Below are positions 2,701-63,369 of a DNA stretch of 64,000 bases, piece after piece. The translations under genes were made by a program, and so were the position numbers. The DNA is from Antedon mediterranea (taxonomy: Eukaryota > Animalia > Echinodermata): positions 12,524,001-12,588,000 of the forward strand of contig NC_092674.1 of the NCBI RefSeq assembly GCF_964355755.1. The letters are read 5' to 3'. The notes below the pieces were generated by a model. The model saw only the letters and a program-made list of their open reading frames with translations. It was not told where the DNA came from and searched no databases. Numbering within the stretch: position 1 is the stretch's first letter; each line of letters begins with the position of its first letter.

Positions 2701-3099
2701 GACGTTCCAATTTGTTTTATGTACCCAAAAACCCGGAAGATTTCTTCTAAACTGCACGAAATCACCGAAAAACAGTAAATTTTTGGAGGTTTTTTCAATG
2801 TAACTTTCTTATTAATTGACCGATTGTTATGGCTGTTTCGACATTGTAATGCCTAATTAAGCACCTACAATGTTATGTTATTTTTTAATTTAAAAAAACT
2901 TTAAACGTCGTCGGTATTGATTTTTAAAGTTAGACGATTTGAAAATTGCCCTGTGTAATTTAAAGTATCAGTTATTGCATAACATTACTGTCTAATGATA
3001 AGTTATGTAGAGATATGTTTTTTGTTTGAAACATTAGTAATAGTATTTCTGTTCATCTTTTAACTACATTTTCTATTACAATGAATTTAAATATGTACA

Positions 3100-3690
3100 T
3101 TTTGAACAATTTGATACCAAATTTAAGTTTCTACGACCAGTACTTACAGAGATATAAAGATGCCCTGGTATGTGGGTCAAAGGTCAGAAATGGCATTTCT
3201 GATCATTTTTTACTAAATGCCCCATTAGACGGAATAAAAATGCATGCCTTCTGAACATTATGAGACCAAAATTGACTTGCTGCGACCAGTGGTTGCCGAG
3301 ATACAAGTACCTTTATTTATTTGTTCATATAACCCTTGACCCTGACCCTTTGACCTTTTGTAACATTTTTCAAAATGTGTAACAAATAACAAAATATATA
3401 TTTAGAACAATTTAAAACCAAATTCAAGTGTCTACGAACAGTAGTTACGGAGATAAATACATGCCCTGGGTTGTGGGTCAAAGGTCAGAAATGGCATTTC
3501 CGGTCATTTTAAACTAAAATCTACCATTAGACTGAATATAAATGTATACCTTCTGATCAATTTCAGACCAAAATTACTTCGCTGTGAGATTTAAGGACAT
3601 ATTGGTGTTTGTTCTTATAACCTTTCACCCTGACCTTTTGACCTTTCGCCACATTTTCAAAATGTGTAACCAAGCCAAAAATGATTGTTT
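3100..3690. repeat. Two diverged ~301-bp tandem repeats, probably the interior of a non-autonomous DNA or rolling-circle element
   Basis: GTGGGTCAAAGGTCAGAAATGGCATTTC at ~3172 and ~3473, with flanking homology. Confidence 0.7.
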
Positions 3691-6495: not shown

Positions 6496-7903
6496 AATTA
6501 TTATGTGTCGCCGTCAACGGCAAATATTGGAGCAGAGCAAAAACTACATCAACCGGGAAATCACGAAATCAATTTTATACCGCGGACGATTGAAAATCTG
6601 CCGATGAAATCAGGAAGGTTGTTTTAACACCTTTTATAATATCTGCCTAAGAGAGAAATATTATTAAATCTACGTTTCGCGTATCTGAGATAGATAATGT
6701 AGGTATGCAAGGCGGAAATCTTTTTCCATTGTGCTCAAAAGTAACCATAATTTAAGTATAGATACACTAACATCGTGGAGCACATTTAGCTCGTAGTATC
6801 AGGTACGTGCACATAGCATCGCATTGGTAAGTCACAAACATATTAGTGAAATGCACAACACTGCAGTAATAGTTATTAAAACATAAAGGTTATGAAATAA
6901 TCAAATTAAACAAATGTCTATCCTTACACGTACGAAAAAAACACCAACAGTTATCTAACAACACGAATTCCTTACCTTCGCGCAAACACTGAAAGAACGA
7001 ATGATTATTTATTATGCTTAATTCTGGAATAGGTATGCACAATGTAAAACGCATAGCACCAACTCCTTGTCGGTTCTTACCCCAGCTGTTCCATTCGTCT
7101 AATATCTTAGAAAAGATAGTATTAGTGTTTTTAATGTCTTATGTCATCGGTAGACTTTTAACAGTCAGCGGTAAAGTTACTTCCGAGTTCGTCATCACTT
7201 TACGATTTCCAACTTCGCTGTATAGTCCCAATAAAACCTCTGTACAAAACGCTTGCAGCTGTCCCACATGTGAACGTGGCATGTACATTTGATATACATT
7301 TGAGTCCAGATAGTTCATGTTTCTCTCTTTAAACGTCAAAATGTACTAATTTGTATTAATTATATTGTAGAATACTAAAGTTTGGCTATTTAATATTATT
7401 GTGACTCAGACTGTTTAAAACTTAATGAAGAAATAGCTCATAATGTTTAATATGTTATAAATTCTGTATACACTACGATAGGACGTGACGTTATTATTAT
7501 ATTACAGTTGTAGACTATGTATAAATTTTATAATGTACCGCGATGGTAAGATTCGCATAGAAATTAATAATATTACAAGTAATACATATTAATTTATAAA
7601 GATTAAACAAGTTATTAAAAAGTTTGACATCATTTGTGACAAAACCTTGGTTAATCTGACTTTCCAATGTCAAGATTAACCATGACGAGGCAGTGGTGTT
7701 CCGAACCATGTGAGGGATACAACCGTGCAGTTCTCGACAATTTAGTCATCCTCGCCACAAAAATGGTCTGTAATATGACCCACGATGTGCTTGCTTCATC
7801 TAGGTATGTTATTATTGGCACGCCCTTTATATTGTAAAATTAAACACTTTTTTAAATCACATTGAATTATATATCACATATTATTTATGTGTGTAACACT
7901 TAC

Positions 7904-8002
7904 TTTGGTCTGAAGATCCAATTGAGCACCTTCCTTGAGCAAAATGGAGCAAACATCTGTGTGGCCGTTTTTTGCAGCCACATATAAAGGTGACGCTCCA
8001 AT
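7904..8002 (-). CDS. Ankyrin-repeat exon (most 3' in window), IGASPLYVAAKNGHTDVCSILLKEGAQLDLQTK
   Basis: 99 bp; donor ACTTAC on + strand at 7898-7903, acceptor CT at 8003-8004; identical to the 24.5 and 35.5 kb exons. Confidence 0.9.
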
Positions 8003-9150
8003 CTGAAATATTACAAACATTATGTTATAGTATTTTCTCTCTCTAAACTAAGTATTATAATATTGTCCTGGAATCAATACGATGTGATCATTTAAAAATG
8101 ACGTTATAGATTTAAATTATGCTACATAGTTAAATTAAATAAAGAGTATTAACCCTTTTCTTTAAGATAATGTATTGTATACATATACATTTTTTGTCTT
8201 TCTTGTAGGCCTATAACATTTTTTTTACATTTTTTTATAAATTTATAAAACAAATAAGTGTTTTTTTCTTTTTTTGGCCTGAAAAGTAAACACTTCATCC
8301 GATAGTGCTAACTAGTCTGAATGTAAACTGGCAGTTACAGCTAAAAATATATCTAGGCTCCAAATTCTGTTCAGGTAACACACTTTTACTGCAAAATTCT
8401 TACAATGATTACGGAATCTATTACGAGAGGTGATGGAATTTTTCTTTGAACGTCAAAATAGAGCATTGGATAGGTTGGGTCTTGCAAAATTTAATGTGTT
8501 TCCTCAATAAAGTCTCTTATAAAAGTGAATCAAATTGAGATTTACTTAATTATAACTACTGTAAGTGAAGCATAACTAAAAATACGTTCCAGCTAATTCT
8601 TACATAGTGAATAATGATAATATTTTTAATGACAGATTTATAAAAAAAATAATTAGGCCTATGGGAGGTTTAACTACAAAAGATTTAAGTCTACGCAAAA
8701 GTAAAGTCTATTTGATACTCTCATTAATGAGGTCGTGCCATTTAGGATCACTACGGTAGTGATTTATTTGCAATCTCAACTTCAGATTGGGTACCGTACC
8801 GTATTTCATGATTTAGGTGATTTTCCTATTTTTGTTTGTTACTTTGGGTGGAATATACTGTATGGTACTGCAAATAAGTCAATCTATAATAATAACCCAC
8901 TACTCTAATATTAACCCATGGGGGTTACTCTTCAAGTCACAAAAACTTATGATACAGCTGTATTTTGAAAATAAGGAGATAATGCAGGTTGATCTTGGGA
9001 GTGGGGTAGGATTGAGTGTTTTTGAGTTCAAACAAATTTGTTTATTCGTACTGTTTTATTATTTTGCTATGAGTTGCGTCACTTTACTGATATTGTTTTT
9101 CTTTGTAAGATTTTCAATTCTAATATAATTAATACTGACAATTTTTTTAA

Positions 9151-12709: not shown

Positions 12710-14091
12710 AGTGGAGCTCCACCCAGAAAATTACTATTTTTCATACATTTCAACTATTATTTAAAAATATCATCCCTTATACTTCATATTTTTTTGAAAT
12801 TTTTTTCAATGAGTACGATTTTCTTGAAAATCACGCCTTTTTGCGTTTTGGGGGGATACCTTGTAATTTCCTATTCGTTTACATGCAAAAGGGGGGTATA
12901 TTTGAATAATCCTAAAAAATTCATTTCTTCACCAAAAAAAAAATGTAAAATGTATATTTATGTAATTTTTCCAGATCTTTCTATTTCTGGTATTTTTATC
13001 AGGTATACATTGCGCAATTTTGCGTAAATAGACACTTTCCCCCGTTCGGGTCCAATTGGGTTTTTTATTTTGCTAGGGAGTACGATCACGTGACATTTTT
13101 CACAATCACACTACTGCAGCTGGCGATCTGTTATTTTGTCGCGATGTTATTTTTGACGGGCGAAAAGTATATTAAAACATTCTGAATGTGACCCTATTAT
13201 GTTTCACAGTGTAATAATGTGATTATGAGACTATTACTAAAATGTCAAATTTAACGAGATTTGAGAAAGACGTGGCTATATATTCAATAAAGCTAGGCCT
13301 AGGCCTACTAGAAAGTGTAGGTATGTACCGATGCTGCGTGGCCTCTAGCTAGGCGGCTAGGCTGACAGCAGTGAAGTTTGTTTTGCTGGCACCCGACCTT
13401 GGCCTACCCATGGGCCATGATAGGGTGCCTGAATAGTTGCTTTTCAGTCAGGTCTAAGCTTGCACATCGCTTTACTACTCTTGTTCTGTATACTATAGGA
13501 TTTTGTGTTTCACAATTCTTAATGTGCGAGAAAACCCAGGAACGATAAATGGGGCGAAACGACCATGCCTATGAATACTTAGGCCTCTAGACAAAAATTC
13601 AAGGCTAGCTAGGCTGAGCACACGGCTGAGCTAGGCCTAGCCCTAGCTTAAAGTTAAAAGCAATCTGATAAGATTATTATGCTGTTGTTGTACAGTGAAA
13701 ATCACGAGGTTTACATGTAAATTATACTGACATTCTTATCGGAAATATTACTTAGGCCTAAACAAATCGTATTAATTGTGTGTATAAAATTTATTCCCCA
13801 TTTTTCGACACATAATTTACCCAAGGGGAGACATTTCATCAATGCGTTGAACGGCGACTAAAACGCGTCAGTCGCTAAGTGTAACGCGTTTTGCGACGTA
13901 TTGTAAACTAATAACCCATTAGTTACTGAAAAACTGTAATGTGTTAAAAAACACTATTTTCTGACCGATTTTTTAGAAATGAGTTTTTGGAAAATATTTC
14001 CGTATTTTTCCTGGTTTTTTTTATGTAATCACTTTCAATTAAACATACTTAAACATAATATAAGCTGAGAAAGTCTGAGTGTAGCTCCACT
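12710..14091. mobile_element. Non-autonomous Kolobok-like DNA transposon (1,382 bp)
   Basis: TTAA TSD (12706-12709 / 14092-14095); 18-bp TIR AGTGGAGCTCCACCCAGA vs AGTGGAGCTACACTCAGA; AG...CT ends fit Kolobok rather than piggyBac; empty site ATGTTTAAATCATGG at 20515. Confidence 0.82.
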
Positions 14092-15691
14092 TTAAATCAT
14101 GAACAGGACAAAAGAAATGGGCAGAGAATAAATTTGTATTTAATAACGAACAATTGAAAGCTATCTACCTAGCTCCATATACGTGTACAATGAATATTGT
14201 TTTAATATATTTACAATATAAAATTGTAAACAGAATAATTGCAACAAATGAACAATTATTTAAAATGAATATAAAAGAAACTTCAATGTGCTCATTTAGA
14301 GATGGTAAAATCGAAACCAATTAGCATTTGTTCTGTAATTGTGCAATAGTAAAAAGGATATGGAACCTTCTCCAGGAAAAAATTTCAGAAAAAACTGGAG
14401 TGCAATTTATTTTTAGTAAATAGAGCATAATTTTTGGATACCTTGATGCGCATCAGTTTTTTATTCTAATTGTAAAATCATTTATTTATAAATGTAAACT
14501 AGTTAAATGCCAAATATCAAAATGGTAATGAACGAGTTAAAAAGGTTTTATGAAACGGAAAAATGTATTTATCATCACAATTTCCAGGACAGTATTTTAA
14601 ATAGAAAATGGATAAAATTAGAAGCATTTATAAATCAGATGGATATCTTTGTTGTTTTTGTTTGCTTTTATATTTTTTATTTGATTATTTTTTTCCTTTG
14701 TAATGTATTATATGATGAAAAAAATAAATAAATAAAAAAATAAAAAAATAGTAAACAACCAAATAAAAGTGACATTGGGCAGACTTGTAAATGGTAGTTG
14801 CGAATGAATTGCCGTTTCTTACAAAGGGAGCATACCGCCTCTCGAAACTACGTATTTTGGTACCTGTATGTGTATAGCATGGCCCCCGGTTGTCGACGCG
14901 TGAGCTGGACCAACTTCTAAATATATTTACTCTATAAATATTTCTTACAGAGGGACACCGCCAGATTAAGTGCGTCCTATCACTAGTAAGTAACTTGATT
15001 CAGATTTCTAACTACAGGACAGATATTGACGCGTAAACCACAATGAAAATTAGTTAGTCGATTAGTTGACGTTTTACTGTAATATTAAATATATTTGTTA
15101 CTAGAAATTAGTTTGATAAAATATATTCTACAAATTAGTAGGCATAATCGTTTTCCCCTAATAAATTAAGGGGGTGGGGGGTGGGGGACACGTGTTTGTT
15201 TATGAGTGAGAATCAATAAGGCATTTAATTAAAATGCAGACCATCTTAAATTACATTGACATGTTCCGATAAATATATTCTCATCATCAGAACTGTAATC
15301 AAAGCCTAGAGTACTTGTATACGTACAAAGTTGCGTTTAAATGAGTCAATAATTAGCATGAGAATAGATTTATCGAAACATGTCACGTAATTTTAAGACG
15401 GTCCACATTTTCATTAAATGCCTTATGATATTATTGATTATCAATCGTAATTTGGTGGTATTATAAATGATGTGCCTGTTTATGTACAGTGAAAGAGCTT
15501 ATTTTAGTATCCTATAGTAATATATTTTCTATATAAGAGAATATTTTGTTTTTCTCTTTTGTTGCGCAAACACCACTTTTATTCACATTCATATTATCTC
15601 ATATTACATAAAATCGTATTATTTAACTTGTAAATGTCGTTACAGTTCATAAGTAACATTTTTACATATATGAATTCTGTATTACTCCTTT

Positions 15692-18235
15692 TCTATATAT
15701 AAATTTACGTAAGGGCAAAATTCGGTAAATCGCGCCTTACTTCTAGAATTTTCACTCGATGGTATGTAAAGTTGGTTCGTACTTTCGGTACTGATTTTAA
15801 CCGCCTGATGTAACCCTGTTTACTAATTAAATTGAGTTAGATAATTAGTTATTGACGATTAAAACGAATTTAGGTTCAAAGATTTGCCCCAAATAGGGGT
15901 GTTTTCCGATCGTGGTATACACTGTCTAATGGATGTCCATCTTGAAAAATACCCGCCAAAAAAATGCGAGGAGGCTTCGCATTTTTCTATCTCCTCCTAC
16001 GATAATTGTTTTTAATAGCTGAAAACCGGTTGAACAGCTAGAGTACACCATCATAATGTTGAAGACAGGCCGATTTTCTTTAAAAAATACTATTTTGATA
16101 GATTTAATATACGATTATACAAATGTATTGATTTACGATGAATGGAACATCCCAATCTCTCAGTCTGCCAGAGTTTTAACACAAGTACTGTAGGTAAATT
16201 TATGAGCCCTTGGTTTAACACATACGGTAGGTAAATATATGGGCCCTTTGAGAATAAACTTGCAATACTTTGACAATACTGTAAATACCTATTAACTATT
16301 TTTCATTTGAATCGAACATTTCTTACTGTGAATGTTCGTACTGTTAGATGTAATATAAAAATATATACAAATAAACTTTATTACTGAGACTGTGGATAGG
16401 CTCTACTGTTAGATATACAAATAAACTTTATACTGACAGTTCCTTCTCAACGTTTGTATTAATTAATAATTACCAAAAATATAAACGTCGTAGTGGTGTA
16501 TCATGACATGTACTTTAATATTTCAATCGATTATGACAGTGACAGTTTTAACAAAGTATTAAATCGCAAATGTTTTAGGCCTACTGTATTTAGAGGTATA
16601 TTATTTATAGGCCTATAAAACATGAACAAAATATTTCGTTACTCAGTGGATAAAGAATATATTTAAAAATTGTTCCTCTTTGTACCTATCCGCTTTCCCA
16701 TCCCTCAACCCTAATGTTACATAGCGAGGAGGCTTCGCATTTTCCTATCTCCTCCTACGATAATTGTTTTTAATAGCTGAAAACCGGTTGAACAGCTAGA
16801 GTACACCATCATAATGTTGAAGACAGGCCGATTTTCTTTTAAAAATACTATTTTGATAGATTGCTAGAGTACACCATCATAATGTTGAAGACAGGCCGAT
16901 TTTCTTTAAAAAATACTATTTTGATAGATTTAATATACGATTATACAAATGTATTGATTTGCGATGAATGGAACATCCAGTTTGGTTTAACACAAGTACT
17001 GTAGGTAAATTTATGAGCCCTTGGTTTAACACATACGGTAGGTAAATATATGGGCCCTTTGAGAATAAACTTGCAATAGGTTCGGAAAATGTTAAAAAAC
17101 CAATTTCTATTATTTTAATCGGTAAACAGTTTCCATTTATTATACATTGATAATGAAACATGAAATATTCCTTTTTATGTCCCTCGAGGTTCATTACAAT
17201 TTATATTTAGTAGTCCCACGGACTTCATCTTAGCCACTCCCCCGAGTGCTAAGGCCAAATTTATGATACCCTACTTTCTATGTAAGTTTAGTTACAGTTA
17301 GTTCTTGACGATAATACAACGAATTTAGGTTACACCCTTCGGCCGCGAAAACGTTTCTGTACAAATATGATACCGATTGGCTTTATTTCATTCAACAGCG
17401 ACCATAATCTCGCCAATTACAGGATAGATAAACTATTTTATTATTGATGTGCTTATAAATTAAGACTCATGTAAACAGCTTGATTACATCATTTTACAGA
17501 CAAACGAAACTTTTTTAAACCTACTGTTTCAATAACTGAGTATAATACTGTATACGTTTTCATAAGTAAGTGCATATACATTTTCGTGTTTTCATTGACG
17601 AGATTGTAATAGTAACTTCAGTAACTATTACAGTACTTATTTATTATACGACACAAGACAATTGTATCTGACAGGTACGTACATTATTCTAAAAAATAAG
17701 TCTAGATAGATCCCTTAGGCGTCATAAATCACAGGCCAACAAATCAGTACTCATGACAGAAATTCGACCCAGTTTGGTTCACACAAATGTTTACAGGAAG
17801 TTCAACACCACAACCGATGATTTGCCCTAAATATTTAGGTAGACTACAGTTTAATTTTTCACTGAATAGGAGCTTGAATTTCCGATTTCCATTTCGCAGA
17901 ATGTCTAGATCTATTTATTTAGTTTGGTTCTTATAATATATAAATACAATCAACTTTATTACTGCGGTTCCATCACCACAACCACGTGCCGCCGCCCAAT
18001 TCCCGTACATACATTTCCATTTCTCCCTAATTTCTTTAATCCACATAAATTAATTGTCCTTTATGGAATCCAGTATTGGTTTTGTTGTCTCTATTTCTGA
18101 ATACCCCAATTAGGGGGACACTTCCGTTTTTGTTTAGTGTCCCAAAAAAGTCCCCGTCCGTGGATTCTACTGTATTCGAGAACCATCTGTGAGCACCCCT
18201 AGATGGTACGCGAGCGAAGCGAGCGTGCCATCTAG
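15692..18235 (+). mobile_element. Non-autonomous Helitron of the same family as 9151-10585, opposite orientation, with internal duplications
   Basis: 5' TCTATATATAAATTTACG; 3' hairpin 18199-18235 ending CTAG|T; ~16724-17075 duplicates ~15966-16266. Confidence 0.85.
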
Positions 18236-20009
18236 TTTCATTAATTTTCTTATTTTTTGTTATACACTTGACAGGATCATCATTATCATCTATCCCGTTT
18301 TAAAATAGTTCACACATTTTCATTTGTTTGTTTTCATTTTACAACCCGGATTATACAATATATTTATATACATGATAAAAAAACAATAATAGCTCAGTAC
18401 CACCAGTAACCCGTATCACTGTAATTCTTTTTCGGTTAATCGTATCAAATTAGAAATTATATTATCATAATCTTATTTCTTAAAGCTACCCATTTTTCTA
18501 TACTTGTTTCTTTATTGTTATATGTTTCACATTCAATGTTATATAACATATTGCTTTTAAATGAATTCCATAAAGATTTACCCACTGGCTTATTTAGTGC
18601 AGATAACATTTTTATTCTATAAATAGTAAATGCTGCAAAAGTGTAAAAATAATCTATTAGCTTATCTCTCGTTCCTAGTATTAATTGTTTAAATGATATA
18701 TTATTTTGATTTAAACTTACAAAGATACTAAGCATTTTCCCAGTGAAATCCGCAACTTAAATATTTCTGTTAGTTCTTTTAATAAGCCAAATTACTTAAT
18801 TATCTCAATATTTATTCTTTAAATAATGTTGATATTGAAAAAGTGTCTAGTTGGTCGCTTTCTTGTAGATGCTTTAATTGTAGAACGTAAATTATTAATT
18901 TTTCTTATATGTTTCTGTTCTGGTTTGACAAACTAGCAAAGGTGTTTAGCACCTGTTTGGTCTTTCCGTGCCTCCTTTTATAATTGTTTTGTCTTCTTTT
19001 TTATGTATATGGCAGAAATTGAATAAATAAATAAATAAACACGGTATGTATTCAATTATCTCAACACAAATACCAATTTAAATGCAATGGTTTCTGTGAT
19101 TAGTTCTTTAGTTCTTTTAAATATGTCTACTATAATCTTTCCATCTCTTCTGAAAACTGTTTTCAATACAATCAATTGCCTGTTGTAGATACAAACAAGG
19201 AAAACGCTTATTCATCATTACTAACAAGTAAGTTATCAATGCTAGTTATTTCTTCAGGTTGATGTACTTACATTTCCATCACATAACCCTTACTTTCTAT
19301 CACGTAAAGTATTAAGAGTACACGCCGGTTCATGTGCGCCATATTATTGCTCATATAATCTTTACTAAAATAATTTTGCAAGCACGTTAATGTATTGATT
19401 CAACATTACTTTGTTTATCAATATTAGGGTTGTATATTCATATGAAGTAATAATATTAACAAGGTCAACACTCGGGAAACCACATTTTCTGGAAAAAATC
19501 AATGGATTTGATACTGCATGACATTTTTTTTCTGTTATTAACCATAATAGGAAGTAAAAATAAAATGTCAACTATTGCTATATGTTGGGGTTAAAGGTCA
19601 CCAAATACAGGTCAAAAATACAAAAAAAATCATATTTTTAAAATAAAACCATTATAATAGTTTAGATTCACGGTGATTCTAGAAACAGCAGCGAATTTAT
19701 CAAAACTGTTGTTTTTGCTCTTTTAAATTGAAATTGCATGGTTTCTCCCAGTTTCCATTGTTAACAAGACACTATTAAAATTTACCAAACATAACATTAT
19801 TAGTGGATTTATATTTAATATGTCTTCTTCCTAAACAATATTAAAAATTTTGGATTGCCAAATTTACCATTTTTGAACTTTTGGCACACTTTGAATTGAT
19901 TCTGTCCCACTGTGCCATGGGCCAGGAGCTATTCCTTTATTATTCTATTTTTTTTTAAATCGGTAATCGTGATCCTTTATAACTTGTTGCATATAATGTG
20001 CCAGCGTGC

Positions 20010-24200: not shown

Positions 24201-24462
24201 AAACCTTGGTTAATCTGACTTTCCAATGTCAAGATTAACCATGACGAGGCAGTGGTGTTCCGAACCATGTGAGGGATACAACCGTGCAGTTCTCGACAAT
24301 TTAGTCATCCTCGCCACAAAAATGGTCTGTAATATGACCCACGATGTGCTTGCTTCATTTAGGTATGTTATTATTGGCACGCCCTTTATATTGTAAAATT
24401 AAACACTTTTTTAAATCACATTGAATTATATAGCACATATTATTTATGTGTGTAACACTTAC

Positions 24463-24561
24463 TTTGGTCTGAAGATCCAATTGAGCACCTTCCTTGAGCA
24501 AAATGGAGCAAACATCTGTGTGGCCGTTTTTTGCAGCCACATATAAAGGTGACGCTCCAAT
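24463..24561 (-). CDS. Ankyrin-repeat exon, IGASPLYVAAKNGHTDVCSILLKEGAQLDLQTK
   Basis: Inside ORF 24355..24579; 99 bp, canonical splice sites. Confidence 0.9.
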
Positions 24562-26288: not shown

Positions 26289-26910
26289 ACACGGTATGTA
26301 TTCAATTATCTCAACACAAATACCAATTGAAATGCAATGGTTTCTGTGATTAGTTCTTTAGTTCTTTTAAATATGTCTACTATAATCTTTCCATCTCTTC
26401 TGAAACCTGTTTTCAATACAATCAATTGCCTGTTGTAGATATGTAACATGGTGGGACCAAACCCTATTAGTCACACAGGCTATTCACCCCTTACTCTCCC
26501 CGATGCCTACTTAACTTGGAACACTACATTCCTGAGGTGGGTCTTCCAAGGAAAGTCAATCAGGATGTGGTACCATTTAATTAGTCATCCTTCCTGTCCC
26601 CTTAATATAAATATATGTTTTGTAGTTAAGTTAGTTAGTTCGGGTATTGATTCTTGAGACTATAACATCAGTCAGAATCACTACGTTTCACATTGTTTTA
26701 TAATATTACTTTTTGATTGAATAAATATTATATTTTGTACATTGAATAATTGTGTGCCATCGTTATTGTCTTGGCCCTCGACACGACTACCGTTACATGG
26801 TGGCAGTGGTTTTTACGAACTCACAAAGAAAAAGTAAATTTATACAGTCGACCAAAAGCTGTAGAATTTGAAAAGAAGCTGATTTTTATTTCCGAAACGG
26901 ATTTTGTTTT

Positions 26911-27114
26911 CAACACAAGTATAGAGTGAGTAGTAACCAATCTACACTCTTGGACACAACAACAAGTAACACAAAGGAACACAGAGAGCAACACAAGTAA
27001 AGAGTGAGTAGTAACCATTCTACACTCTTGGAAACAACAAACACAAGAAACACAAAGGAACAGAGACGTACAAAGAGCAACACAAGTAAAGGATGAGTAA
27101 CCAATCTACACTCT
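26911..27114 (+). repeat. About 2.5 copies of a 78-89 bp tandem repeat in the LTR element leader
   Basis: CAACACAAGTA...AGTAACCA(A/T)TCTACACTCT starting at 26911, 26989 and 27078. Confidence 0.85.
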
Positions 27115-27275
27115 AATTAGCATATACTTTCATACTGACAGTGGCATTTATTTTATACTTTAATAATTCTGGTTGATAATTGTATTATAATTCTCAATAT
27201 TACTTATATTGTAGTTAAGGTACATTCTGTTATTAGCCTAATTGATTCCAAACTTATCGTACATTCTCACTTAAA

Positions 27276-29066
27276 ATGGCAACTCCGCGACTTACTCGGT
27301 CCCAAACCCGTACAACCCTTATTAGTACCCCTGGGTTGGCTCCTAACTTTGAGAGTCCACCTAGCCCTCCCCCACCATCTCAATCCGAAACAGCTCTGCA
27401 AATGCGCATGCTTGAGTTAGAACTTGAACTCCAACGTCTTCGAATGCGTCAACAACCGCCCCAGGATACTCATAGCCCCATTAATAAGATCCCTAAAATC
27501 ACAGATAAGGATGACATTGACATCTACTTGTCATGCTTTGAGCGTATTGCAGCACAGTGCCAAATTCCCCCTGAAAATTGGACCCTACACCTTCTCCCAA
27601 AATTAACTGGTAAAGCCAGGGAGGCCTACAACGATATGCCTTTACAGAATTTCGTATATAACGACCTTAAAGATGCTATCCTCTTGAAGTACCACCTCAC
27701 AGCCGAAACATATCGGAAACAATTTAGACAAACCCCCAAACCCCTTTCAATGTCCACTAGAGAGTGGGTTGGAAAACTTGATCGAGACATGACGAGGTGG
27801 CTCCGAAGTGCAAAAGTTAACCTACAAGACCCCAAAGAAATTCTTGACTTTTTTGTTTTAGATCAGGCAATCCAAAAACTCCCCTTCCCACTTGCTTCCC
27901 TAATCAAAGAAAGAGAGCCCAAAACGTCCAATGAATTTTCTCGAATTGCCGATACCTTGATTGAAATTAAAGGTAAACCCTGGATGGAATCTATCTCTAA
28001 GCCCAACACCAGACCTTCCACGAGAATATCCGCCCCTCCATCAATAGCCCCGCCGTCTCCTAGTTACAGTCCCGCATCCCAAGGCCCTCCCCAACCTACA
28101 TCGAGTTATTCCCCAAAACCCTTGCTCTCGATCCCTTTTGATAATTATTCAGCCCCTGCCAGTACCTACACAAATCGTCAATACACCACACAAAACATTA
28201 CATGCTACAAATGTAATAAACCAGGCCACATTAGTCGACAATGTCCCCTTAACAACAACCCTGCAAAAGATCAATTACTAGGCCTGTATGTTAAACGCAA
28301 TTATGGGACAAACCCATGGTTACTGTCTGGTACAATTAACAACAGACATGCCGAAATACTTAGAGACACTGGGTGCTCCCAAAGCATTGTAAAAAGTACT
28401 TTTGTTAAACCCAAGGATTATACCAGTGAAACTGTTACCATACAAGGCTTTACTGGTCAATACGTAACCCTCCCAGTTGTACACGTACATATTGATTGTA
28501 AGGCTTATAAAGGAAAATTAAAGGCAGCCGTGAGTAATGACACTCCTAAAGACTTATTACTTGGCAACGAAGTTATGACCGGTAACCCCAACGACGTCAC
28601 TTGGCCCCCTTCTATATTAGCTATTACCAGAAAAGAAGCCCATAACCAAGAAAGACAAGAGGCTATTAATTTAGCTGCTGCTCTTAATGTTAAAACGTCC
28701 CCAATCACTGATTGTCCCCCAAGATTGTACCACATTGTCAAGAAAAATGACATTGCTAGGACCAGCGTTAAACAAGCCCAAGCGAAACAGAAACATTATT
28801 ATGATAAGAAAACATTGCCTCGAAAATTTAAGGTTGGTCAGAAAGTATTAATTCTCCTCCCAGATGACACATCGAAAGTTAAATCTAAATGGCAAGGTCC
28901 CTATCCTATCTCTAAAGTTTTCAGTGATGTTAATTATGAAATACTAGTTGGTAACAAACACAAAACATACCACATTAATTTACTACGGTTATATAATGAA
29001 CGTCCACAGAAACAAAACAATGATTATATGTACAGTACAGTAGTTAAGAGTGCCTTTTTTCAGTAA
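27276..29066 (+). CDS. 596-aa Gag (SCAN-like capsid, CCHC knuckle) plus aspartic protease plus integrase C-terminal GPY/F region; no RT, RNase H or integrase core
   Basis: Motifs DDIDIYLSCFER...LTGKAREAY, CYKCNKPGHISRQC, LRDTGCSQS, DLLLGNE, KQKHYYDK, KWQGPYPI, YHINLLR. Confidence 0.9.
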   Translation: MATPRLTRSQTRTTLISTPGLAPNFESPPSPPPPSQSETALQMRMLELELELQRLRMRQQPPQDTHSPINKIPKITDKDDIDIYLSCFERIAAQCQIPPENWTLHLLPKLTGKAREAYNDMPLQNFVYNDLKDAILLKYHLTAETYRKQFRQTPKPLSMSTREWVGKLDRDMTRWLRSAKVNLQDPKEILDFFVLDQAIQKLPFPLASLIKEREPKTSNEFSRIADTLIEIKGKPWMESISKPNTRPSTRISAPPSIAPPSPSYSPASQGPPQPTSSYSPKPLLSIPFDNYSAPASTYTNRQYTTQNITCYKCNKPGHISRQCPLNNNPAKDQLLGLYVKRNYGTNPWLLSGTINNRHAEILRDTGCSQSIVKSTFVKPKDYTSETVTIQGFTGQYVTLPVVHVHIDCKAYKGKLKAAVSNDTPKDLLLGNEVMTGNPNDVTWPPSILAITRKEAHNQERQEAINLAAALNVKTSPITDCPPRLYHIVKKNDIARTSVKQAQAKQKHYYDKKTLPRKFKVGQKVLILLPDDTSKVKSKWQGPYPISKVFSDVNYEILVGNKHKTYHINLLRLYNERPQKQNNDYMYSTVVKSAFFQ

Positions 29067-32000
29067 TTTTGTAAAATCAATTTCATCTTGTATGTATAAT
29101 CTTAAATATAATACGCTTATTTACTTATCAGATTGGATTTAGTTAAATGTAGTATTAAGTTTACTGCCACTGTCATGATGATGTGTATGTTGAATTGTGT
29201 TTTATTGGTTCTCCCCTCCTGCCCACTGGGTACAAGAAGCTTTTCACAACTATGTTCTCTGAATGAAGTTAATTATAATGGATCACAAGAAACTTTTAAC
29301 ACTTACATGAGAATTACTTATTGATAAACTATTTCACTTTATTTGACTCGGATTGATGAGAAACTTGAATCCAGAAATGTACATTTTTTGAAGATTTTCT
29401 TCAAGATATAGTGGACAGTCAACTGCAGTTATGTCGTTCTCAGATTTTTTTGTTATGAACTGAATTTTGGGAAGCAGGTCAACTTGTTTCTAGGCAACAG
29501 CTGATTGATGGATCTATCAGGAGTAAATACAGGAGTTCCTACATTTATGTCCCGCTGACTTTCATTTTCAACTGAACATGTTTGCTGAGCTATATATTAT
29601 TATGAACGCTTTATATTGTTATTATGACTTTTAATTTGAGAACTTTTACCAATTTTACTTTTACTTTTGTATGTTTTGCCACGTTTGCCGATTTATTGAT
29701 TTGTGACGATTTGCGTTACTTTTTCTTTTGTTTAGATTTAAGATGTTCGTAGTTAAGTTTGTTTCTCAATACATTTTTGGCTCAGTGACTCGTTGGTTTC
29801 GAAGACACGGCTTCGAATTGACGAGCGGGGGAATGTAACATGGTGGGACCAAACCCTATTAGTCACACAGGCTATTCACCCCTTACTCTCCCCGATGCCT
29901 ACTTAACTTGGAACACTACATTCCTGAGGTGGGTCTTCCAAGGAAAGTCAATCAGGATGTGGTACCATTTAATTAGTCATCCTTCCTGTCCCCTTAATAT
30001 AAATATATGTTTTGTAGTTAAGTTAGTTAGTTCGGGTATTGATTCTTGAGACTATAACATCAGTCAGAATCACTACGTTTCACATTGTTTTATAATATTA
30101 CTTTTTGATTGAATAAATATTATATTTTGTACATTGAATAATTGTGTGCCATCGTTATTGTCTTGGCCCTCGACACGACTACCGTTACAAGATACAAACA
30201 AGGAAAACGCTTATTCATCATTACTAACAAGTAAGTTATCAATGATAGTTATTTCTTCAGGTTGGTGTACTTACATTTCCATCACATAACCCTTACATTC
30301 TATCACGTAAAGTATTAAGAGTACACGCCTGTTCATGTGCGCCATATTATTGCTCATATATTCTTTACTAAAATAATTTTGCAAGCACGTTAATGTATTG
30401 ATTCAACATTACTTTGTTTATCAATATTGGGGTTGTATATTCATATGAAGTAATAATATTAACAAGGTCATCACTCGGGAAACCAAATTTTTGGGAAAAA
30501 AGCAATGGATTTGATACTGCATGACATTTTTTTTCTGTTATTAACCATAATAGAAAGTAAAAATAAAATGTCAACTATTGCTATATTTTGGGGTTAAAGG
30601 TCACCAAATACAGGTCAAAATACCAAAAATTATATTTTTAAAATAAAACCATTATAATGGTTTAGATTCACGGTGATTCTAGAAACAGCAGCGAATTTAT
30701 CAAAACTGTTGTTTTTGCTCTTTTAAATTGAAATTTCATGGTTTCTCCCAGTTTCCATGGTTACAAGACACTATTACAATTTACCAAACATACCATTATT
30801 AGTGGATTTATATTTAAGATGTCTTCTTCCTAAACAATATTAAAAAGTTTGGCACACTTTGAATTGATTTTGTCCCACTGTGCCATGGGCCAAGAGCTAT
30901 TCCTTTATTATTCTATTTTTTTTAATCGGTAATCGTGACCCTTTATAAGTTGTTGTATATGATGTGCCAGCGTGCTACGTTCTAGACATTGGAATAGTAA
31001 ACAACTTAACTAATAGTAAAAAGAACTTGAAACGAATTTTAAACGTCTGTCCAGCATTAGAGATAATCTTAAAAAATTCTCTTCTGGAAAGAGGTAATAG
31101 ATGCATGGAGTAATTTTATTTCTATTCATTATCCAAAGTCTGTTGACGAGCTATTAAGAATGCAAATTTGGAATAATGAAGTAATAAGAATAGGCAACGA
31201 ATGTATAAGATATGGAAATTGGGAAAAAGCAGGTATTCTGTTTGTTAATGATTTGTTTAACAGCAATGGGCAATTTATGAACAAAAAAGAAGTCGAAGAT
31301 ACCTATGGAATTAAGATAAATTATATAAAATTAATAGGATTAAGAAGGCTTCTTATGGAAAAATTTAACAATTTAATGATATGGGAAATTAAAAAAAAAA
31401 CTGTTTTGCCAGATATTCCATTTCATATAAAAAGTACTCTTTCAACAAAGAAAGGGATGTCGTATTTTGTATGATGTTTTAAATAACTCAATGTTTAAAT
31501 CATGGAAAGCACAAAAGAAATGGGCAGAGAATAAATTTGTATTCAATAACGAACAATTGAAAACAATCTACCTAGATCCACATACGTGTATAATGCATAT
31601 TGTTTTAATATATTTTCAATATAAAATTGTAAACAGAATAATTGCAACAAATGAACAATTATTTAAAATTAATATAAAAGAAACTTCAATGTGCTCATTT
31701 AGAGATGGTAAAATTGAAACCATTTTGCATTTGTTCTGTAATTGTCGAATAGTAAAAAGGATATGGAACCTCCTCCAGGAAAAAAATATCAGAAAAAACT
31801 TGAGCGCATTTATTTTTAGTAAAGAGAGCTTTATTTTCGGATACCAAGATGCGCATCAGTTTTATAATTTAAAAGTCATTAATGCAATTATTCTAATTGT
31901 AAAATCATTTATTTATAGTTAAATGTAAGCCAACTATCAAAATGGTTATGAACGAGTTAAAAAGGTTTTATGAAACGGAAAAATGTATTTATCATCAGAA

Positions 32001-35000
32001 TTTCCAGGACAGTATTTTAAATAGAAAATGGATAAAATTAGAAGCAGTTATAAATCAAATATGAAATTGTTAGAGATTAGAATAATTTTTATGAACCTTT
32101 ATTTAATTTGTGAGATGGATATCTTTGTTGTTTTTTGTTTAATTTTTATTTTTTATTTGATTATGTTTTTCCTTTGTAATGTATTATAAGATGGAAAAAA
32201 AAAAGTAAACAACCAAATAAAAGTGAAATTGGGTAGACTTGTAAATGGTAGTTGCGAATTAATTGCCATTTCTTACAAAGGGAGCATACCGCCTCTCGAA
32301 ACTACGTATTTTGGTACCTGGATGTGTATAGCATGGCCTCCGGATGTCTACGCATGAGCTGGACCAACTTCTAAATATATTTACTCTATAAATATTTCTT
32401 ACAGAGGGACACCGCCAGATTAAGTGCGTCCTATCACTAGTAAGTAACTTGATTCTGATTTCTAACTACAGGACAGATATTGACGCGTAAACCACAAAGA
32501 AAATGAGTTTGTGAATTAGTAGACGTTTTACTGTAATATTAAATATATTTGTTACTAAAAATTAGTTTGATAAAATATATTCTACAAAATTAGTAGGCCT
32601 AATCGTTTTCCCCTAATAAATTAAGGGGATGGGGGGTGGGGGCACGTGTTTGTTTATGAGTGAGAATCAATAAGGCATTTAGTTAAAATGCAGACCGTCT
32701 TAAATTACTGGACATGTTCCGATAAATATATTCTCATCATCAGAATTGTAATCAAAGCCTAGAATACTTGTATACGTACAAAGTTGCGTTTAAATGAGTC
32801 AATCATTAGCATGAGAATAGATTTATCGAAACATGTCACGTAATTTTAAGATGGTCCACATTTTCATTAAATGCCTTATGATATTATTGATTATCAATCG
32901 TAATTTGGTGGTATTATACATGATGTGCCTGTTTATATACAGTGAAAGAGCTTATTTTAGTATCCTATAGTAATATAGTTTCTATATAAGAGAATATGTT
33001 ATTTCAAATCAGGTACAAAAGCCGACGATCCAAGCGAATTACATGTTTAAAAAAAATCGGAAAACACTCATTTGTTATTTTCAAAACACATTGAAAATCG
33101 GCGCGGTCCGATGGCATTCGTGACTGGCGGAAAAACGCAACAAAAATGAAAAACGAAAATGGCATGTTGTGTTTTCTGTAGGCCTATACAGTAATTAGTT
33201 TCTCAGATACCACCGTTTACAGTAGTATAATTGGGTGTTTATTTCAAGCTCATATCAACGGGCAAAGAAATCCTCGTTATTAAAAAAAACATATTTAAAC
33301 TTATTCACTATAGTATATTTAAATTATCTACTTATTACTTTATTTATATATTGTTTTCTCTTTTTACTTGGTTAGATAAAACAAACGGAAAACATTCTAG
33401 TTGAAATTGTTTATGTTAATTATATCCACAGATTGCACTATTTTCTTTATACTTAATTAGGTAATCTTTTCGTACTGTTGGGAATTGATAAATATTTCAG
33501 TTCAATTATTTTCCAAAATAGTGGTACACAACAATGAAAGAAAACAACATTTTTGTTACGTTCTTGTCATTAGAAATATTCTTGCGACTGAGGTGAACTT
33601 CGAAAATGCCGGTCAGATATAAAAAAAAACAGTTACAAGGAATAAATTAGCAATTGTCACTGCATACTCATCCATCAAACTAGCCTACATCGAGAAAATA
33701 TTTAATTCTATGAATCTTATGATGGTTAGTTTTATAGGAACAATAGTACTATTTTTATTTGTTTTGGCAATTAATGCAATTAAAGCGTAATTAATTCGTC
33801 ATATTCCATTTGGAATACTACGTCCTGTAAAATGACTATAGAATGTTCTGATTTGTTAATTTTTAAATTATATTATAATATACAGAATTATATATTATTT
33901 AAAATGTTCGGGTAGCTTCCATGCATGCGGCTTTTGGCCTTAATGGAAGTCCTTTTGTATATTTTTTCTTTTTTTACAGTATAATTTAATTTTGTTTAAA
34001 CTACAGGCGTGGCCCGTGAAAAAAAAAATCAAAGTATATGTATCGCCGTCAACGGCAAATATTGGAGCAGATCAAAAACTACATCAACCGGGAAATCACG
34101 AAATCAATTTTATACCGCGGACGATTGAAAATCTGCCGATGAAATCAGAAAGGTTGTTTTAACACCTTTTATAATATCTGCCTAAGAGAGAAATATTATT
34201 AAATCTACGTTTCGCGTATCTGAGATAGATAATGTAGGTATGCAAGGCGGAAATCTTTTTCCATTGTGCTCAAAAGTAACCATAATTTAAGTATAGATAC
34301 ACTAACATCGTGGAGCACATTTAGCTCGTAGTATCAGGTACGTGCACATAACATCGCATTGGTAAGTCACAAACATATTAGTAAAATGCACAACACTGCA
34401 GTAATAGTTATTAAAACATAAAGGTTATGAAATAATCAAATTAAACAAATGTCTATCCTTACACGTACGAAAAAAACACCAACAGTTATCTAACAACACG
34501 AATTCCTTACCTTCGCGCAAACACTGAAAGAACGAATGATTATTTATTATGCTTAATTCTGGAATAGGTATGCACAATGTAAAACGCATAGCACCAACTC
34601 CTTGTCGGTTCTTACCCCAGCTGTTCCATTCATCTAATATCTTAGAAAAGATAGTATTAGTGTTTTTAATGTCTTATGTCATCGGTAGACTTTTAACAGT
34701 CATCGGTAAAGTTACTTCCGAGTTCGTCATCACTTTACGATTTCCAACTTCGCTGTATAGTCCCAATAAAACCTCTGTACAAAACGCTTGCAGCTGTCCC
34801 ACATATGAACGTGGCATGTACATTTGATATACATTTGAGTCCAGATAGTTCATGTTTCTCTCTTTAAACGTCAAAATGTACTAATTTGTATTAATTATAT
34901 TGTAGAATACTATGGTTTGGCTATTTAATATTATTGTAACTCAGACTGTTTAAAACTTAATGAAGAAATAGCTCATAATGTGTAATATGTTATAAATTCT

Positions 35001-35438
35001 GTATACACTACGATAGGACGTGACGTTATTATTATATTACAGTTGTAGACTATGTATAAATTTTATAATGTACCGCGATGGTAAGATTCGCATAGAAATT
35101 AATAATATTACAAGTAATAAATATTAATTTATAAAGATTAAACAAGTTATTACAAAGTTTGACATCAATTGTGACAAAACCTTGGTTAATCTGACTTTCC
35201 AATGTCAAGATTAACCATGACGAGGCAGTGGTGTTCCGAACCATGTGAGGGATACAACCGTGCAGTTCTCGACAATTTAGTCATCCTCGCCACAAAAATG
35301 GTCTGTAATATGACCCACGATGTGCTTGCTTCATTTAGGTATGTTATTATTGGCACGCCCTTTATATTGTAAAATTAAACACTTTTTTAAATCACATTGA
35401 ATTATATAGCACATATTATTTATGTGTGTAACACTTAC

Positions 35439-35537
35439 TTTGGTCTGAAGATCCAATTGAGCACCTTCCTTGAGCAAAATGGAGCAAACATCTGTGTGGC
35501 CGTTTTTTGCAGCCACATATAAAGGTGACGCTCCAAT
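35439..35537 (-). CDS. Ankyrin-repeat exon, IGASPLYVAAKNGHTDVCSILLKEGAQLDLQTK
   Basis: Inside ORF 35331..35555; 99 bp, canonical splice sites; identical to exons at 24463 and 7904. Confidence 0.9.
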
Positions 35538-38500
35538 CTGAAATATTACAAACATTATGTTATAGTATTTTCTCTCTCTAAACTAAGTATTATAATATTG
35601 TCCTGGAATCAATACGATGTGATCATTTAAAAATGACGTTATAGATTTAAATTATGCTACATAGTTAAATTAAATAAAGAGTATTAACCCTTTTCTTTAA
35701 GATAATGTATGTATACATATACATTTTTTGTCTTTCTTGTAGGCCTATAACATTTTTTTTACATTTTTTTATAAATTTATAAAACAAGTAAGTGTTTTTT
35801 TCTTTTTTAGCCTGAAAAGTAAACAGTTCATCCGATCCGATAGTGCTAACTAGTCTGAATGTAAACTGGCAGTTACAGCTAAAAATATATCTAGGCTCCA
35901 AATTCTGTTCAGGTAACACACTTTGACTGCAAAATTCTTACAATGATTACGGAATCTATTACGAGAGGTGATGGACTTTTTCTTTGAACGTCAAAATAGA
36001 GCATTGGATAGGTTGGGTCTTGCAAAATTTAATGTGTTTCCTCAATAAAGTCTCTTATAAAAGTGAATCAAATTGAGATTTACTTAATTATAACTACGCT
36101 TCACTTAGTAGTAGTAACTACTACTAAGTGAAGCATAACTAAAAATACGTTCCAGCTAATTCTTACATAGCGAGTAATGATAATATTTTTAATGATAGAT
36201 TTATAAAAAATTACTTAGGCCTATGGGAGGTTTAACTACAAAAGATTTAAGTCTACGCAAAAGTAAAGTCTATTTGATACTCTCATTAATGAGGTCGTGC
36301 CATTTAGGATCACTACGGTAGTGATTTATTTGCAGTCTCAACTTCAGATTGGGTACCGTACCGTATTTCATGATTTAGGTGATTTTCCTATTTTTGTTTG
36401 TTACTTTAGGTGGAATATACTGTATGGTACTGCAAATAAGTCAATATATAATAATAACCCACTACTCTAATATTAACCCATGGGGGTTACTCTTAAAGTG
36501 ACAAAAACTTATGATACAGCTGTATTTTGAAAATAAGTAGATAATGCAGGTTGATCTTGGGAGTAGGGGAGGATTGAGTGTTTTTGAGTTCAAACAAATT
36601 TGTTTATTCGTACTGTTTTATTATTTTGCTATAAGTTGCTGACCAAAAAAGTTGGGGTGGGTTACTATTTTCAGGTGCTTAATTTAAGATTAGTAATAGT
36701 AACCCATTACTCTAATTGTAACCCCCCTTCCAATATATATAATCTATATAATCATTATTGTATTGGCGTCACTTTACTGATCTCGTTTTTCTTTGTAAGA
36801 TTTTCAATTCTAATATAATTAATACTGACAATTTATTTAATATTCGTAATCCAAAACGAGTTACTCGTAGCTCATCTTCTGTTGGTACTCTTTTTGATAT
36901 TCGTCGCTGCAGAACTGAATCTTCTTTTCAATCATATCCCACGTGTTACCAGAATTTGGAATAACTTACCCAGTGAAATCCGCAACTTAAATATTTCTGT
37001 TAGTTCTTTTAAAGCCAAATTACTTAATTATCTCAATATTTATTCTTTAAATAATTTTGATATTGAAAAAGTGTGTAGTTGGTCGCTTTCTTGTAGATGC
37101 TTTAATTGTAGAACGTAATTTATTTATTTTTCTTATATGTTTCTTCTGGTTTGACAAACTAGCATAGGTGTTTAACACCTGTTTGGTCTTTCCGTGCCTC
37201 CTTTTATAATTATTTTGTCTTCTTTTTCATGTATATGGCAGAAATTGAATACATAAATAAATAAACACGGTATGTATTCAATTATCTCAACACAAATACC
37301 AATTGAAATGCAATGGTTTCTGTGATTAGTTCTTTAGTTCTTTTAAATATGTCTACTATAATCTTTCCATCTCTTCTGAAACCTGTTTTCAATACAATCA
37401 ATTGCCTGTTGTAGATACAAACAAGGAAAACGCTTATTCATCATTACTAACAAGTAAGTTATCAATGATAGTTATTTCTTCAGGTTGGTGTACTTACATT
37501 TCCATCACATAACCCTTACATTCTATCACGTAAAGTATTAAGAGTACACGCCTGTTCATGTGCGCCATATTATTGCTCATATATTCTTTACTAAAATAAT
37601 TTTGCAAGCACGTTAATGTATTGATTCAACATTACTTTGTTTATCAATATTGGGGTTGTATATTCATATGAAGTAATAATATTAACAAGGTCATCACTCG
37701 GGAAACCAAATTTTTGGGAAAAAAGCAATGGATTTGATACTGCATGACATTTTTTTTCTGTTATTAACCATAATAGAAAGTAAAAATAAAATGTCAACTA
37801 TTGCTATATTTTGGGGTTAAAGGTCACCAAATACAGGTCAAAATACCAAAAATTATATTTTTTAAATAAAACCATTATAATGGTTTAGATTCACGGTGAT
37901 TCTAGAAACAGCAGCGAATTTATCAAAACTGTTGTTTTTGCTCTTTTAAATTGAAATTTCATGGTTTCTCCCAGTTTCCATGGTTACAAGACACTATTAC
38001 AATTTACCAAACATACCATTATTAGTGGATTTATATTTAAGATGTCTTCTTCCTAAACAATATTAAAAAGTTTGGCACACTTTGAATTGATTTTGTCCCA
38101 CTGTGCCATGGGCCAAGAGCTATTCCTTTATTATTCTATTTTTTTTAATCGGTAATCGTGACCCTTTATAAGTTGTTGTATATGATGTGCCAGCGTGCTA
38201 CGTTCTAGACATTGGAATAGTAAACAACTTAACTAATAGTAAAAAGAACTTGAAACGAATTTTAAACGTCTGTCCAGCATTAGAGATAATCTTAAAAAAT
38301 TCTCTTCTGGAAAGAGGTAATAGATGCATGGAGTAATTTTATTTCTATTCATTATCCAAAGTCTGTTGACGAGCTATTAAGAATGCAAATTTGGAATAAT
38401 GAAGTAATAAGAATAGGCAACGAATGTATAAGATATGGAAATTGGGAAAAAGCAGGTATTCTGTTTGTTAATGATTTGTTTAACAGCAATGGGCAATTTA

Positions 38501-49413: not shown

Positions 49414-49512
49414 ATTGTTTGGAAGATCCACTTTAGCACCTGCCTTGAGCAAAATAGTGCAAACGTCTGTGTGGCCCTCTTGTGCAGCTCCATTTAAAGG
49501 TGACCATCCATC
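49414..49512 (-). CDS. Ankyrin-repeat exon, DGWSPLNGAAQEGHTDVCTILLKAGAKVDLPNN
   Basis: Inside ORF 49303..49527; 99 bp between TTTCAG and GTAAGT, phase 0/0. Confidence 0.9.
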
Positions 49513-54184: not shown

Positions 54185-54283
54185 ATTCGTCTGAAGATCC
54201 AAATTAGCACCTGCCTTGAGCAAAATAGTGCAAACATCCGTTTGGCCCTTTAGTGCAGCCACATATAAAGGTGACGCTCCATT
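54185..54283 (-). CDS. Ankyrin-repeat exon, NGASPLYVAALKGQTDVCTILLKAGANLDLQTN
   Basis: 99 bp, TTTCAG/GTAAGT boundaries, phase 0/0; hand-translated; flanking introns homologous to the other five exons. Confidence 0.9.
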
Positions 54284-55072
54284 CTGAAATATTACAAACA
54301 TTATGTTATAGTATTTTTTACTCTAAACAAAGTATTATAATATTGTCCTGCAATCAATACGATGTAATCAATTAAAAATAACGTTATAGATTTAAATAAT
54401 GCTAATAATAGAGGGCTAAAATCACGCATTATGGCTTTGCACGATATTTTTTGGCGTTCCAGATAATTGTTTTTTTATTGTTTACGTGTTTTAATATTAT
54501 TTATGATTTTCAGACATATTTTAAAAGCTTATATGCATGAAAATAGTGTAGTTTTCTCATCTTCTAAATCAAATGTCAACTGTATACGTGAAGCATAATT
54601 TTATTGGATTGTTATTGTATTGTATTATATTGTTAAAACAATACATTTCAGTTCCAACTTATCCTTACATACATAAACTTGGTTCTTAATTGATATGAAA
54701 ATCCTTATTGCAGCTTAAAAGAAGCTATACTGGTATTGAGCGCAGTAACATCTGACAAACGGCGGGCTTTGATAACTACTGTAAAATCAACAGGGGCTAA
54801 ATTTGAACCAGAACACTGGGTTAACCCGATATTAATCACGAAGATGCCCTGGATTATTTATCATCATATTTTAAATCAGATGTAATTGGAATTCTATAAA
54901 CCTCAGCTTCATCCCTATTTCTAGATAAATGCCATTCATACTCATTGAGAGTTGGCTGGTTTATTTAGCAGAAACCAGATATCCTTTAACTTGCATCAGC
55001 TTAAACTTATTTTAGTTTGACCAAAATTATGCAAAAATCCCTCCTACTCCCCTTGGGAGTTTTCTGCCGCTA

Positions 55073-62949: not shown

Positions 62950-63270
62950 TAATTATTATTAATATTTATAAAGATTAAACAAGTTATTACCAAGTGTGAC
63001 ACCAGTTGTTACAAAACCTTGGTTAATCTGACTTTGCAATTTCAAGATTAACCTTGACGAGGCAGCGGTGTTCCGAACCATGTGAGGGGTACAACCGTGC
63101 AGTTCTCGACAATTTAGTTGCAACAAAAATGATCTGTAATATGACCCGCGATGTGGTTGCTTCATTTAGGTATGTTATTACTGACACGCCCTTTAAATTG
63201 TAAAATTAAACACTTTTTAAATCACACTTAATTATATAGTAATATTATTATTAATGTGTGTAACACTTAC

Positions 63271-63369
63271 TTTGGCCTGAAGATCCAATTTAGCACCTTC
63301 CTTGAGCAAAATAGTGCAAACATCTGTGTGGCCGTTTTGTGCAGCCAAATGTAAAGGTGACCATCCATC
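63271..63369 (-). CDS. Ankyrin-repeat exon (most 5' in window), one 33-aa repeat DGWSPLHLAAQNGHTDVCTILLKEGAKLDLQAK
   Basis: 99 bp, open frame; minus-strand acceptor TTTCAG and donor GTAAGT, phase 0/0; fits ankyrin consensus G-x-(T/S)PLH-x-AA-x-x-GH...LL-x-x-GA. Hand-translated; not in the ORF track. Confidence 0.92.

Follow-up and report, generated by a model that had tools for sequence, protein, structure and literature searches.

The mosaic pattern of the ankyrin exons in the window (the whole 64-kb stretch of DNA analyzed) is, with some reservation, best attributed to one ectopic gene-conversion (or double-crossover) tract of about 150 bp or less, exchanged between the lineages of the exons at 7.9 kb (E6) and 54.2 kb (E2) and likely received by the 54.2-kb exon.

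Six intact ankyrin exons were found in the window, all on the minus strand, 99 bp long, in phase 0, bounded by AG and GT, and encoding one repeat each (Table 1). The six copies represent four sequence types, which differ pairwise at 11 to 20 of the 99 bases and all pass the curated cut-off of the Pfam Ank profile PF00023 (31 to 41 bits versus 21.1). Neighboring exons lie 5 to 17 kb apart with transposon remnants between them, and the GC content of the window is 32%. A DNA profile of the exon and its flanks, run over the window, recovered the six exons as strong matches, each undamaged and in the same orientation, and revealed neither decayed nor inverted copies. Of the 17 long frames on the list for the window, none resembled another domain of the host gene, and no STAND NTPase or N-terminal effector domain was present; the long frames scanned or recognized were retroelement remnants.

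Table 1. Coordinates of the ankyrin exons, exchanged segments, and duplicated units in the window.
Feature	Position	Strand	Remarks
E1	63271..63369	-	Ankyrin exon, 33 codons, phase 0; W3/E24/K33 type
E2	54185..54283	-	Ankyrin exon; A3/A24/N33 type; likely tract recipient
E3	49414..49512	-	Ankyrin exon; W3/A24/N33 type; most divergent flanks
E4	35439..35537	-	Ankyrin exon; A3/E24/K33 type; identical to E5 and E6
E5	24463..24561	-	Ankyrin exon; within 3010 bp matching the E4 unit at 100%
E6	7904..8002	-	Ankyrin exon of the 7.9-kb type; same sequence as E4 and E5
Breakpoint interval, E6 coordinates	7969..7984	-	Exon nt 19-34, codons 7-12; from the likelihood profile
Inferred exchanged tract in E2	54253..54404	-	120 bases of intron and exon nt 1 to nt 22-31
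Inferred tract as present in E6	7972..8124	-	Counterpart of the E2 tract 54253..54404
Continuous E6-E1 homology block	7578..8402	-	Matches 62948-63762; 78/794 substitutions; spans both exon sides
Remnant of the common upstream intron in E2	54567..54670	-	E3-like (50/51), not E6-like
7.2-kb exon-plus-intron unit with E4	30190..37412	-	Tandem copy with E5 at 19187-26441
E4/E5 duplication crossover interval	31469..31576	.	107 bp, within a duplicated LINE remnant (zf-RVT frame at 31431-31922)
Partial unit between E5 and E6	14091..19186	-	Unit positions -1428 to +2534, with the exon, missing and replaced by other sequence
LTR retroelement	26441..30189	+	357-bp ends identical, 5-bp target duplication; in one unit copy only

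Two conflicting codon splits had been described in the first-pass annotation, and both were reproduced. Codon 3 is GCG in E2, E4, E5, and E6 and TGG in E1 and E3, codons 24 and 33 are GAA/AAA in E1, E4, E5, and E6 and GCA/AAT in E2 and E3, and all four combinations of codon 3 with codons 24/33 are present among the six exons. All five flank motifs quoted in support were located in precisely the copies claimed. The sharing on the acceptor side between the 7.9-kb and 54.2-kb copies, although visible in these motifs, was weak evidence when judged by gap-free columns; among 102 such upstream columns, none grouped E2 and E6 versus E1 and E3, and one grouped E1 and E6. Two of the acceptor-side differences are private to E1, because E3 sides with E2 and E6 at position -50 and at a 2-bp gap. 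Within the exon, the informative sites of the four types at nt 1, 7, and 8 group E2 with E6 and those at nt 36, 71, and 99 group E1 with E6, a 3 versus 3 arrangement reached by the exon alone in 2 of 20 orderings (P = 0.1). In the first 30 exon bases, one difference was found between E2 and E6 and six between E1 and E6; E2 and E6 have in common the two-base codon difference that gives GCG, as well as the bases at nt 1 and nt 19.

The change of affinity along the exon and flanks was analyzed by MaxChi as a permutation test over positions -118 to +345 in 12 triplets. Four triplets reached P < 0.05, two once adjacent sites were collapsed, and the best, E6 versus E1 and E2, placed the break at 22|32 (P = 0.001). 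The same break recurred in all nine alignment and masking settings, with P values of 0.0002 to 0.011. Null simulations on one tree with no recombination, repeated 2500 times in each of four settings and allowing for gamma-distributed rates, hot codons, and doublet mutations, gave family-wise P values of 0.006 to 0.019, or 0.020 to 0.024 when adjacent sites were collapsed. The likelihood profile peaked at nt 27 with a 2-lnL interval inside the exon (Table 1), which widened to nt 8 to 34 without rate classes. The segment from +28 to +345 rejected the grouping of E2 with E6 (AU P = 0.031); the segment from -118 to +27 preferred it, with E1 and E6 still allowed as a group (AU P = 0.10). The switch of affinity along the exon and flanks is real and goes beyond chance, though it is modest. 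Of the exchange proposed near codons 9 to 12, what stands is one end inside the exon, near codons 7 to 12, which is supported by MaxChi, the simulations, and the likelihood profile.

In separate trees of the two flanks, suggested beforehand as the check, all three topologies were retained upstream (AU P = 0.28 to 0.60), and in the downstream-intron tree neither alternative topology was rejected (AU P = 0.08 and 0.16). In the introns, the E1-E2 distance over all columns was 7/114 upstream versus 35/213 downstream (P = 0.009), and the E2-E6 distance over all columns was 8/117 versus 41/218 (P = 0.003); for E1-E6, the values were 9/114 and 21/239 (P = 0.84). With columns within 5 to 10 bp of gaps masked, the intron contrast weakened to P values of 0.18 to 1.0 for E1-E2 and 0.02 to 0.12 for E2-E6.

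Only four sequence types, with six informative sites in the exon, bear on the exchange, and the left-hand sites lie in fast-changing codons, so that parallel change is likelier there. An explanation without exchange, in which a single tree holds, hypervariable surface codons changed repeatedly, and the intron evolved at uneven rates, is improbable. It would accommodate the location of the left-hand informative sites in codons 1 and 3, which are widely variable among repeats, the upstream and downstream-intron trees that reject no topology, and the dependence of the intron-only signal on the alignment. However, in the null simulations with 2.5- to 3-fold hot codons and 10 to 20% doublet mutations the observed statistic was attained in just 1 to 2% of the runs, and the near identity of E2 and E6 over the first 30 exon bases, with GCG, nt 1, and nt 19 in common, also speaks against it.

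The exchange had been thought to have created the 7.9-kb type, and the surroundings of the exons do not bear this out. E6 is collinear with E1 upstream to about -400 and downstream to about +1400/+1670, in blocks from -399 to +425, +463 to +898, and +1344 to +1405, with 7 to 12% substitutions per flank block on both sides; the match of E2 to E1 and E6 ends at -120. The far-upstream remnant in E2, which was picked as the best local match and is somewhat selected, agrees with E3 at 50 of 51 bases, versus seven mismatches and a 6-bp gap in comparison to E6. A short conversion-type tract fits best, because E6 is collinear with E1 on both sides and its likeness to E2 covers only about 150 bp. The inferred tract in E2 differs from E6 at 9/147 positions and the remainder of E2 at 53/287. 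Terminal branches to the left and right of the best break were 0.019 and 0.11 for E2, 0.049 and 0.059 for E6, and 0.027 and 0.028 for E1.

Recipient models with equal parameter numbers were compared in 24 fits, 8 unmasked and 16 gap-masked. The model with E2 as recipient was ahead of that with E6 by 3 to 7 lnL in all 8 unmasked fits, the two tied within about 1 lnL in all 16 gap-masked fits, and models with E1 or E3 as recipient were worse by at least 4 lnL in all 24. Judged by these alignments, the 54.2-kb exon appears more likely to be the recipient than the 7.9-kb exon. The opposite direction is possible but doubtful: an E1-like copy would have taken the acceptor side and codons 1 to 10 from the E2 lineage, by a short tract or by a crossover with later rearrangement of the E2 upstream intron, and would then have been duplicated twice. 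The tied gap-masked fits, the six differences between E1 and E6 in the first 30 exon bases, and the E1-E6 divergence, slightly higher far upstream (30/260) than downstream (19/239 and 36/418), point in this direction, but the unmasked fits, the collinearity of E6 with E1 beyond -120, where the E2 remnant is E3-like, and an upstream E1-E2 distance (7/114) as low as that of E1-E6 (9/114) point away from it. A chimera of the assembly was rejected as a candidate, with the E6 type present in three copies with diverged flanks and the E2 tract carrying its own differences relative to each copy in the window (9/147 from E6).

Contigs from other sequencing runs were consulted as well. Six runs from three studies match part of the region, and the contigs of four runs were aligned to E2; they phase only short stretches. 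On E2 they carry 37 alternative letters, of which 21 sit in codons 7, 8, 11, 12, and 31, and 17 occur in no exon of the window, so that the true donor of the tract may be an unsampled copy. The letters particular to E2 at nt 32, 42, and 45 are present in run X5, whose label as RNA is a guess. The summed depth of X5 is in the thousands in the exon and about 140 or less in the flanking introns, and three groups of loose ends and two joints, read by hand, link the end of a repeat directly to the start of a repeat without an intron; one of these junctions enters the first eight codons of E3. Members of the exon family are thus joined one after another by splicing at the predicted boundaries, whether in this gene or in paralogues. 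The E6-specific letters at exon nt 2, 31, and 79 are unlisted in the contigs, which drop rare variants, and hence give no evidence. At 54160-54315, loose ends of runs X1, X3, and X5 lead into additional repeat types not represented in the window, in which codon 4 encodes T and codons 7, 8, 11, and 12 encode other residues.

Several small exchanges with donors outside the window, such as a W3-type micro-tract into E1, in place of a single event between E2 and E6, are a very improbable reading. The identity of E1 and E3 over the first 18 exon bases, the existence of exon types beyond those of the window, and the E2 far-upstream remnant, which points to a further exchange with E3, are consistent with it, but two or more events are required, and the single-event model with E1 as recipient was worse by 4 to 15 lnL.

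Under the preferred reading of a single tract into the 54.2-kb exon, the six exons are tandem copies of one exon-plus-intron unit, and non-allelic units would have mispaired. An exchange involving E2 would need to be resolved within or close to the exon, because E2 has no long homology with the other units beyond the exon and about 460 bp of flank, and a tract end inside the exon would follow from this limited homology. The tract would put codons 1, 3, 7, and 8 (beta-turn and helix 1) of one type onto the helix-2 half of another, and diversifying selection on surface codons may retain the new combinations.

We take the six positions randomized in DARPins to be codons 33, 1, 3, 11, 12, and 31 of the exons. 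All six of these codons vary among the four types, versus 8 of the 27 others (P = 0.003), and at them 5 of about 15 nonsynonymous sites differ, versus 8.5% in introns (P = 0.006). E1 and E6 are separated by 10 nonsynonymous changes and 1 synonymous change; pairwise pN/pS ranged from 0.9 to 3.1, resting on 1 to 4.5 synonymous differences per pair. A wider set of surface codons, adding 7, 8, and 32, was chosen post hoc, and its P values were not used. The changes concentrate at codons predicted to form the binding surface, so that the tract would shift beta-turn and helix-1 residues as a block, with a predicted effect on binding.

Exons E4, E5, and E6 had been regarded as triplicated. Over about 2.5 kb, E6 is separated from E4 and E5 by 37 substitutions and E4 from E5 by 4, and the three like exons result from two successive duplications, because E6 split off earlier. 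A single simultaneous triplication was rejected on these divergences (1.5% versus 0.16%). In the E4 unit, 41 of 42 diagnostic sites match the partial unit on one side and then 39 of 40 match the E5 unit, the affinity switches within the crossover interval given in Table 1, and none of 82 sites groups the two outer copies. This is the signature of a clean unequal crossover, the younger duplication.

Further irregularities were observed along the array. In the partial unit at 14091-19186, about 3.2 kb of inverted and tandem repeats (15552-18735) replaces the exon-bearing 4 kb. Four differences between the E5 and E4 units are packed into 70 bp (23361-23431 and 34337-34407) with several kb around otherwise identical; compared with E6, each copy has two of them to itself. 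At 7875-8175, E6 is identical to E5 over 301 bp centered on the exon, with flanks about 1.5% different, which may reflect further conversion or constraint. An older remnant of the donor-side intron, about 8 to 12% diverged, lies at 786-2700, and no exon lies near 3.3 kb, where one would be expected and where the sequence at 3090-3673 is a tandem duplication of 290 bp. The intron downstream of E6 (4120-6497) and the E3-E4 intron (40899-45115) share blocks that are 87 to 90% identical, which reads as a further sign of chimeric introns.

Transposons were found in the introns. The LTR retroelement (Table 1) is very young; its frame at 27246-29066 spans 606 codons and matches SCAN, zinc-knuckle, and integrase C-terminal domains, and it lacks a match to reverse transcriptase. 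In the intron downstream of E1, a frameshifted LINE reverse-transcriptase remnant at 59421-61217 has RVT_1 and PF09004 relatives that are 28 to 53% identical, the named ones in fish and molluscs; together with the spliceosomal type of the introns, this suggests that the gene belongs to an animal, at no finer resolution. A minus-strand reverse-transcriptase remnant was detected at 46279-47749 (RVT_1, E value of 1e-6), adjoining a frame that we take to be a GIY-YIG endonuclease, i.e., a Penelope-like element. A short, very high-copy repeat is located at 53470-53530, with hundreds of loose contig ends on both sides in all four runs.

Among the protein matches listed, the top-scoring were Mytilus CARD- or HEPN-nSTAND3-ankyrin proteins (P0001, P0003, and P0008), which resemble the array in their long C-terminal self-similar 33-residue ankyrin arrays, the G-x-S-P-L motif, and variable positions. 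Orthology with them is not demonstrated, because the best single-repeat identity is only 19/33, and the ranking favors any long repeat protein. The best single-repeat identity among the 120 matches listed was 20/33, the short-protein homologue search gave no match, and the Atlas search gave generic ankyrin clusters only. The constant framework of the DARPin module (G2, S/T4, P5, G13, and G25), with variation at randomized positions, is recognizable in the exons, as judged from the available part of PMC9611651, which confirms the framework numbering; further background on DARPins is given in part in PMC8683736. In contrast to the engineered DARPins, variation in the natural exons extends to codons 7 and 8, position 7 being called structural in the same part of PMC9611651.

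The locus records three layers at base resolution, namely, exon duplication by mapped unequal crossover, exon loss, and sub-exon exchange, all of which are already known from fungal and algal receptor genes. An animal case with multi-kb introns between the repeats would show that introns do not restrict shuffling to whole repeats. An immune-receptor role of the host gene is possible. More specifically, and tentatively, the array may be the sensor of an undescribed family of animal innate-immune receptors, a natural DARPin library, in which repeat exons would be multiplied and lost by unequal crossover in introns, tracts ending within exons would bring the beta-turn/helix-1 half of the binding face into new combinations with the helix-2 half, and diversifying selection would act, with arrays differing between individuals. 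If it belongs to a STAND-type receptor, the locus would be a tractable model for the diversification of invertebrate recognition proteins; otherwise, it amounts to concerted evolution of an ordinary kind.

Expansion of repeats by tandem duplication and exon shuffling is general, according to the part of PMC1553488 available. Exchange inside the exon of an animal one-repeat-per-exon ankyrin array was not reported in the literature searched, mostly without subscription journals. In the ROCO LRR and NB-ARC TPR genes of Ectocarpus, each repeat is encoded by its own exon, the repeat region recombines within and between genes, and the binding face is under positive selection; exons are also inactivated or lost, and targeted somatic recombination has been proposed (PMC3341825, partial text). 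The present array likewise has one repeat per symmetric exon, spliced in series, though the X5 junctions may be paralogous, and recombination in the repeat region. Ectocarpus, in contrast, is a brown alga with LRR and TPR repeats; inverted exon copies in introns are common there, whereas the profile search of the window found no inverted or inactivated copies, and the accessible passages describe shuffling of whole exons, whereas here the break lies inside one exon.

A close parallel is offered by the HNWD genes het-d, het-e, and het-r of Podospora anserina, whose WD40 repeats are 80 to 100% identical and are gained and lost by unequal crossover (available text of PMC2873952 and PMC13449251). 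Four codons are hypervariable in their arrays, and both chimeric repeats and a conversion tract of 88 bp within a repeat are reported (PMC2873952 and PMC12222747, in part); the evidence for conversion in PMC2873952 is placed in supplementary files. Near-identical repeat arrays, often with STAND NTPases, occur in animals too, according to sections of PMC13449251. The present locus, as far as these texts describe HNWD, shares near-identical repeats, variation concentrated at a few predicted surface codons, unequal crossover, and a likely short intra-repeat tract. Its 15 exon pairs show 0 to 20 differences per 99 bases, which fits the 80 to 100% identity of HNWD-like arrays of high internal conservation, repeats were gained and lost by unequal crossover (the E4/E5 crossover and the exon-less partial unit), and a chimeric repeat or short conversion tract was found at a family-wise P of 0.006 to 0.024. 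Unlike this locus, HNWD, in the same texts, comprises WD40 repeats in a NACHT receptor of fungi, for which a role in non-self recognition has been shown. The HNWD WD40 repeats are contiguous within the coding sequence; here, each ankyrin repeat is its own exon, 5 to 17 kb from the next, with no NTPase domain in the window. The locus behaves like an HNWD-type array, a known process.
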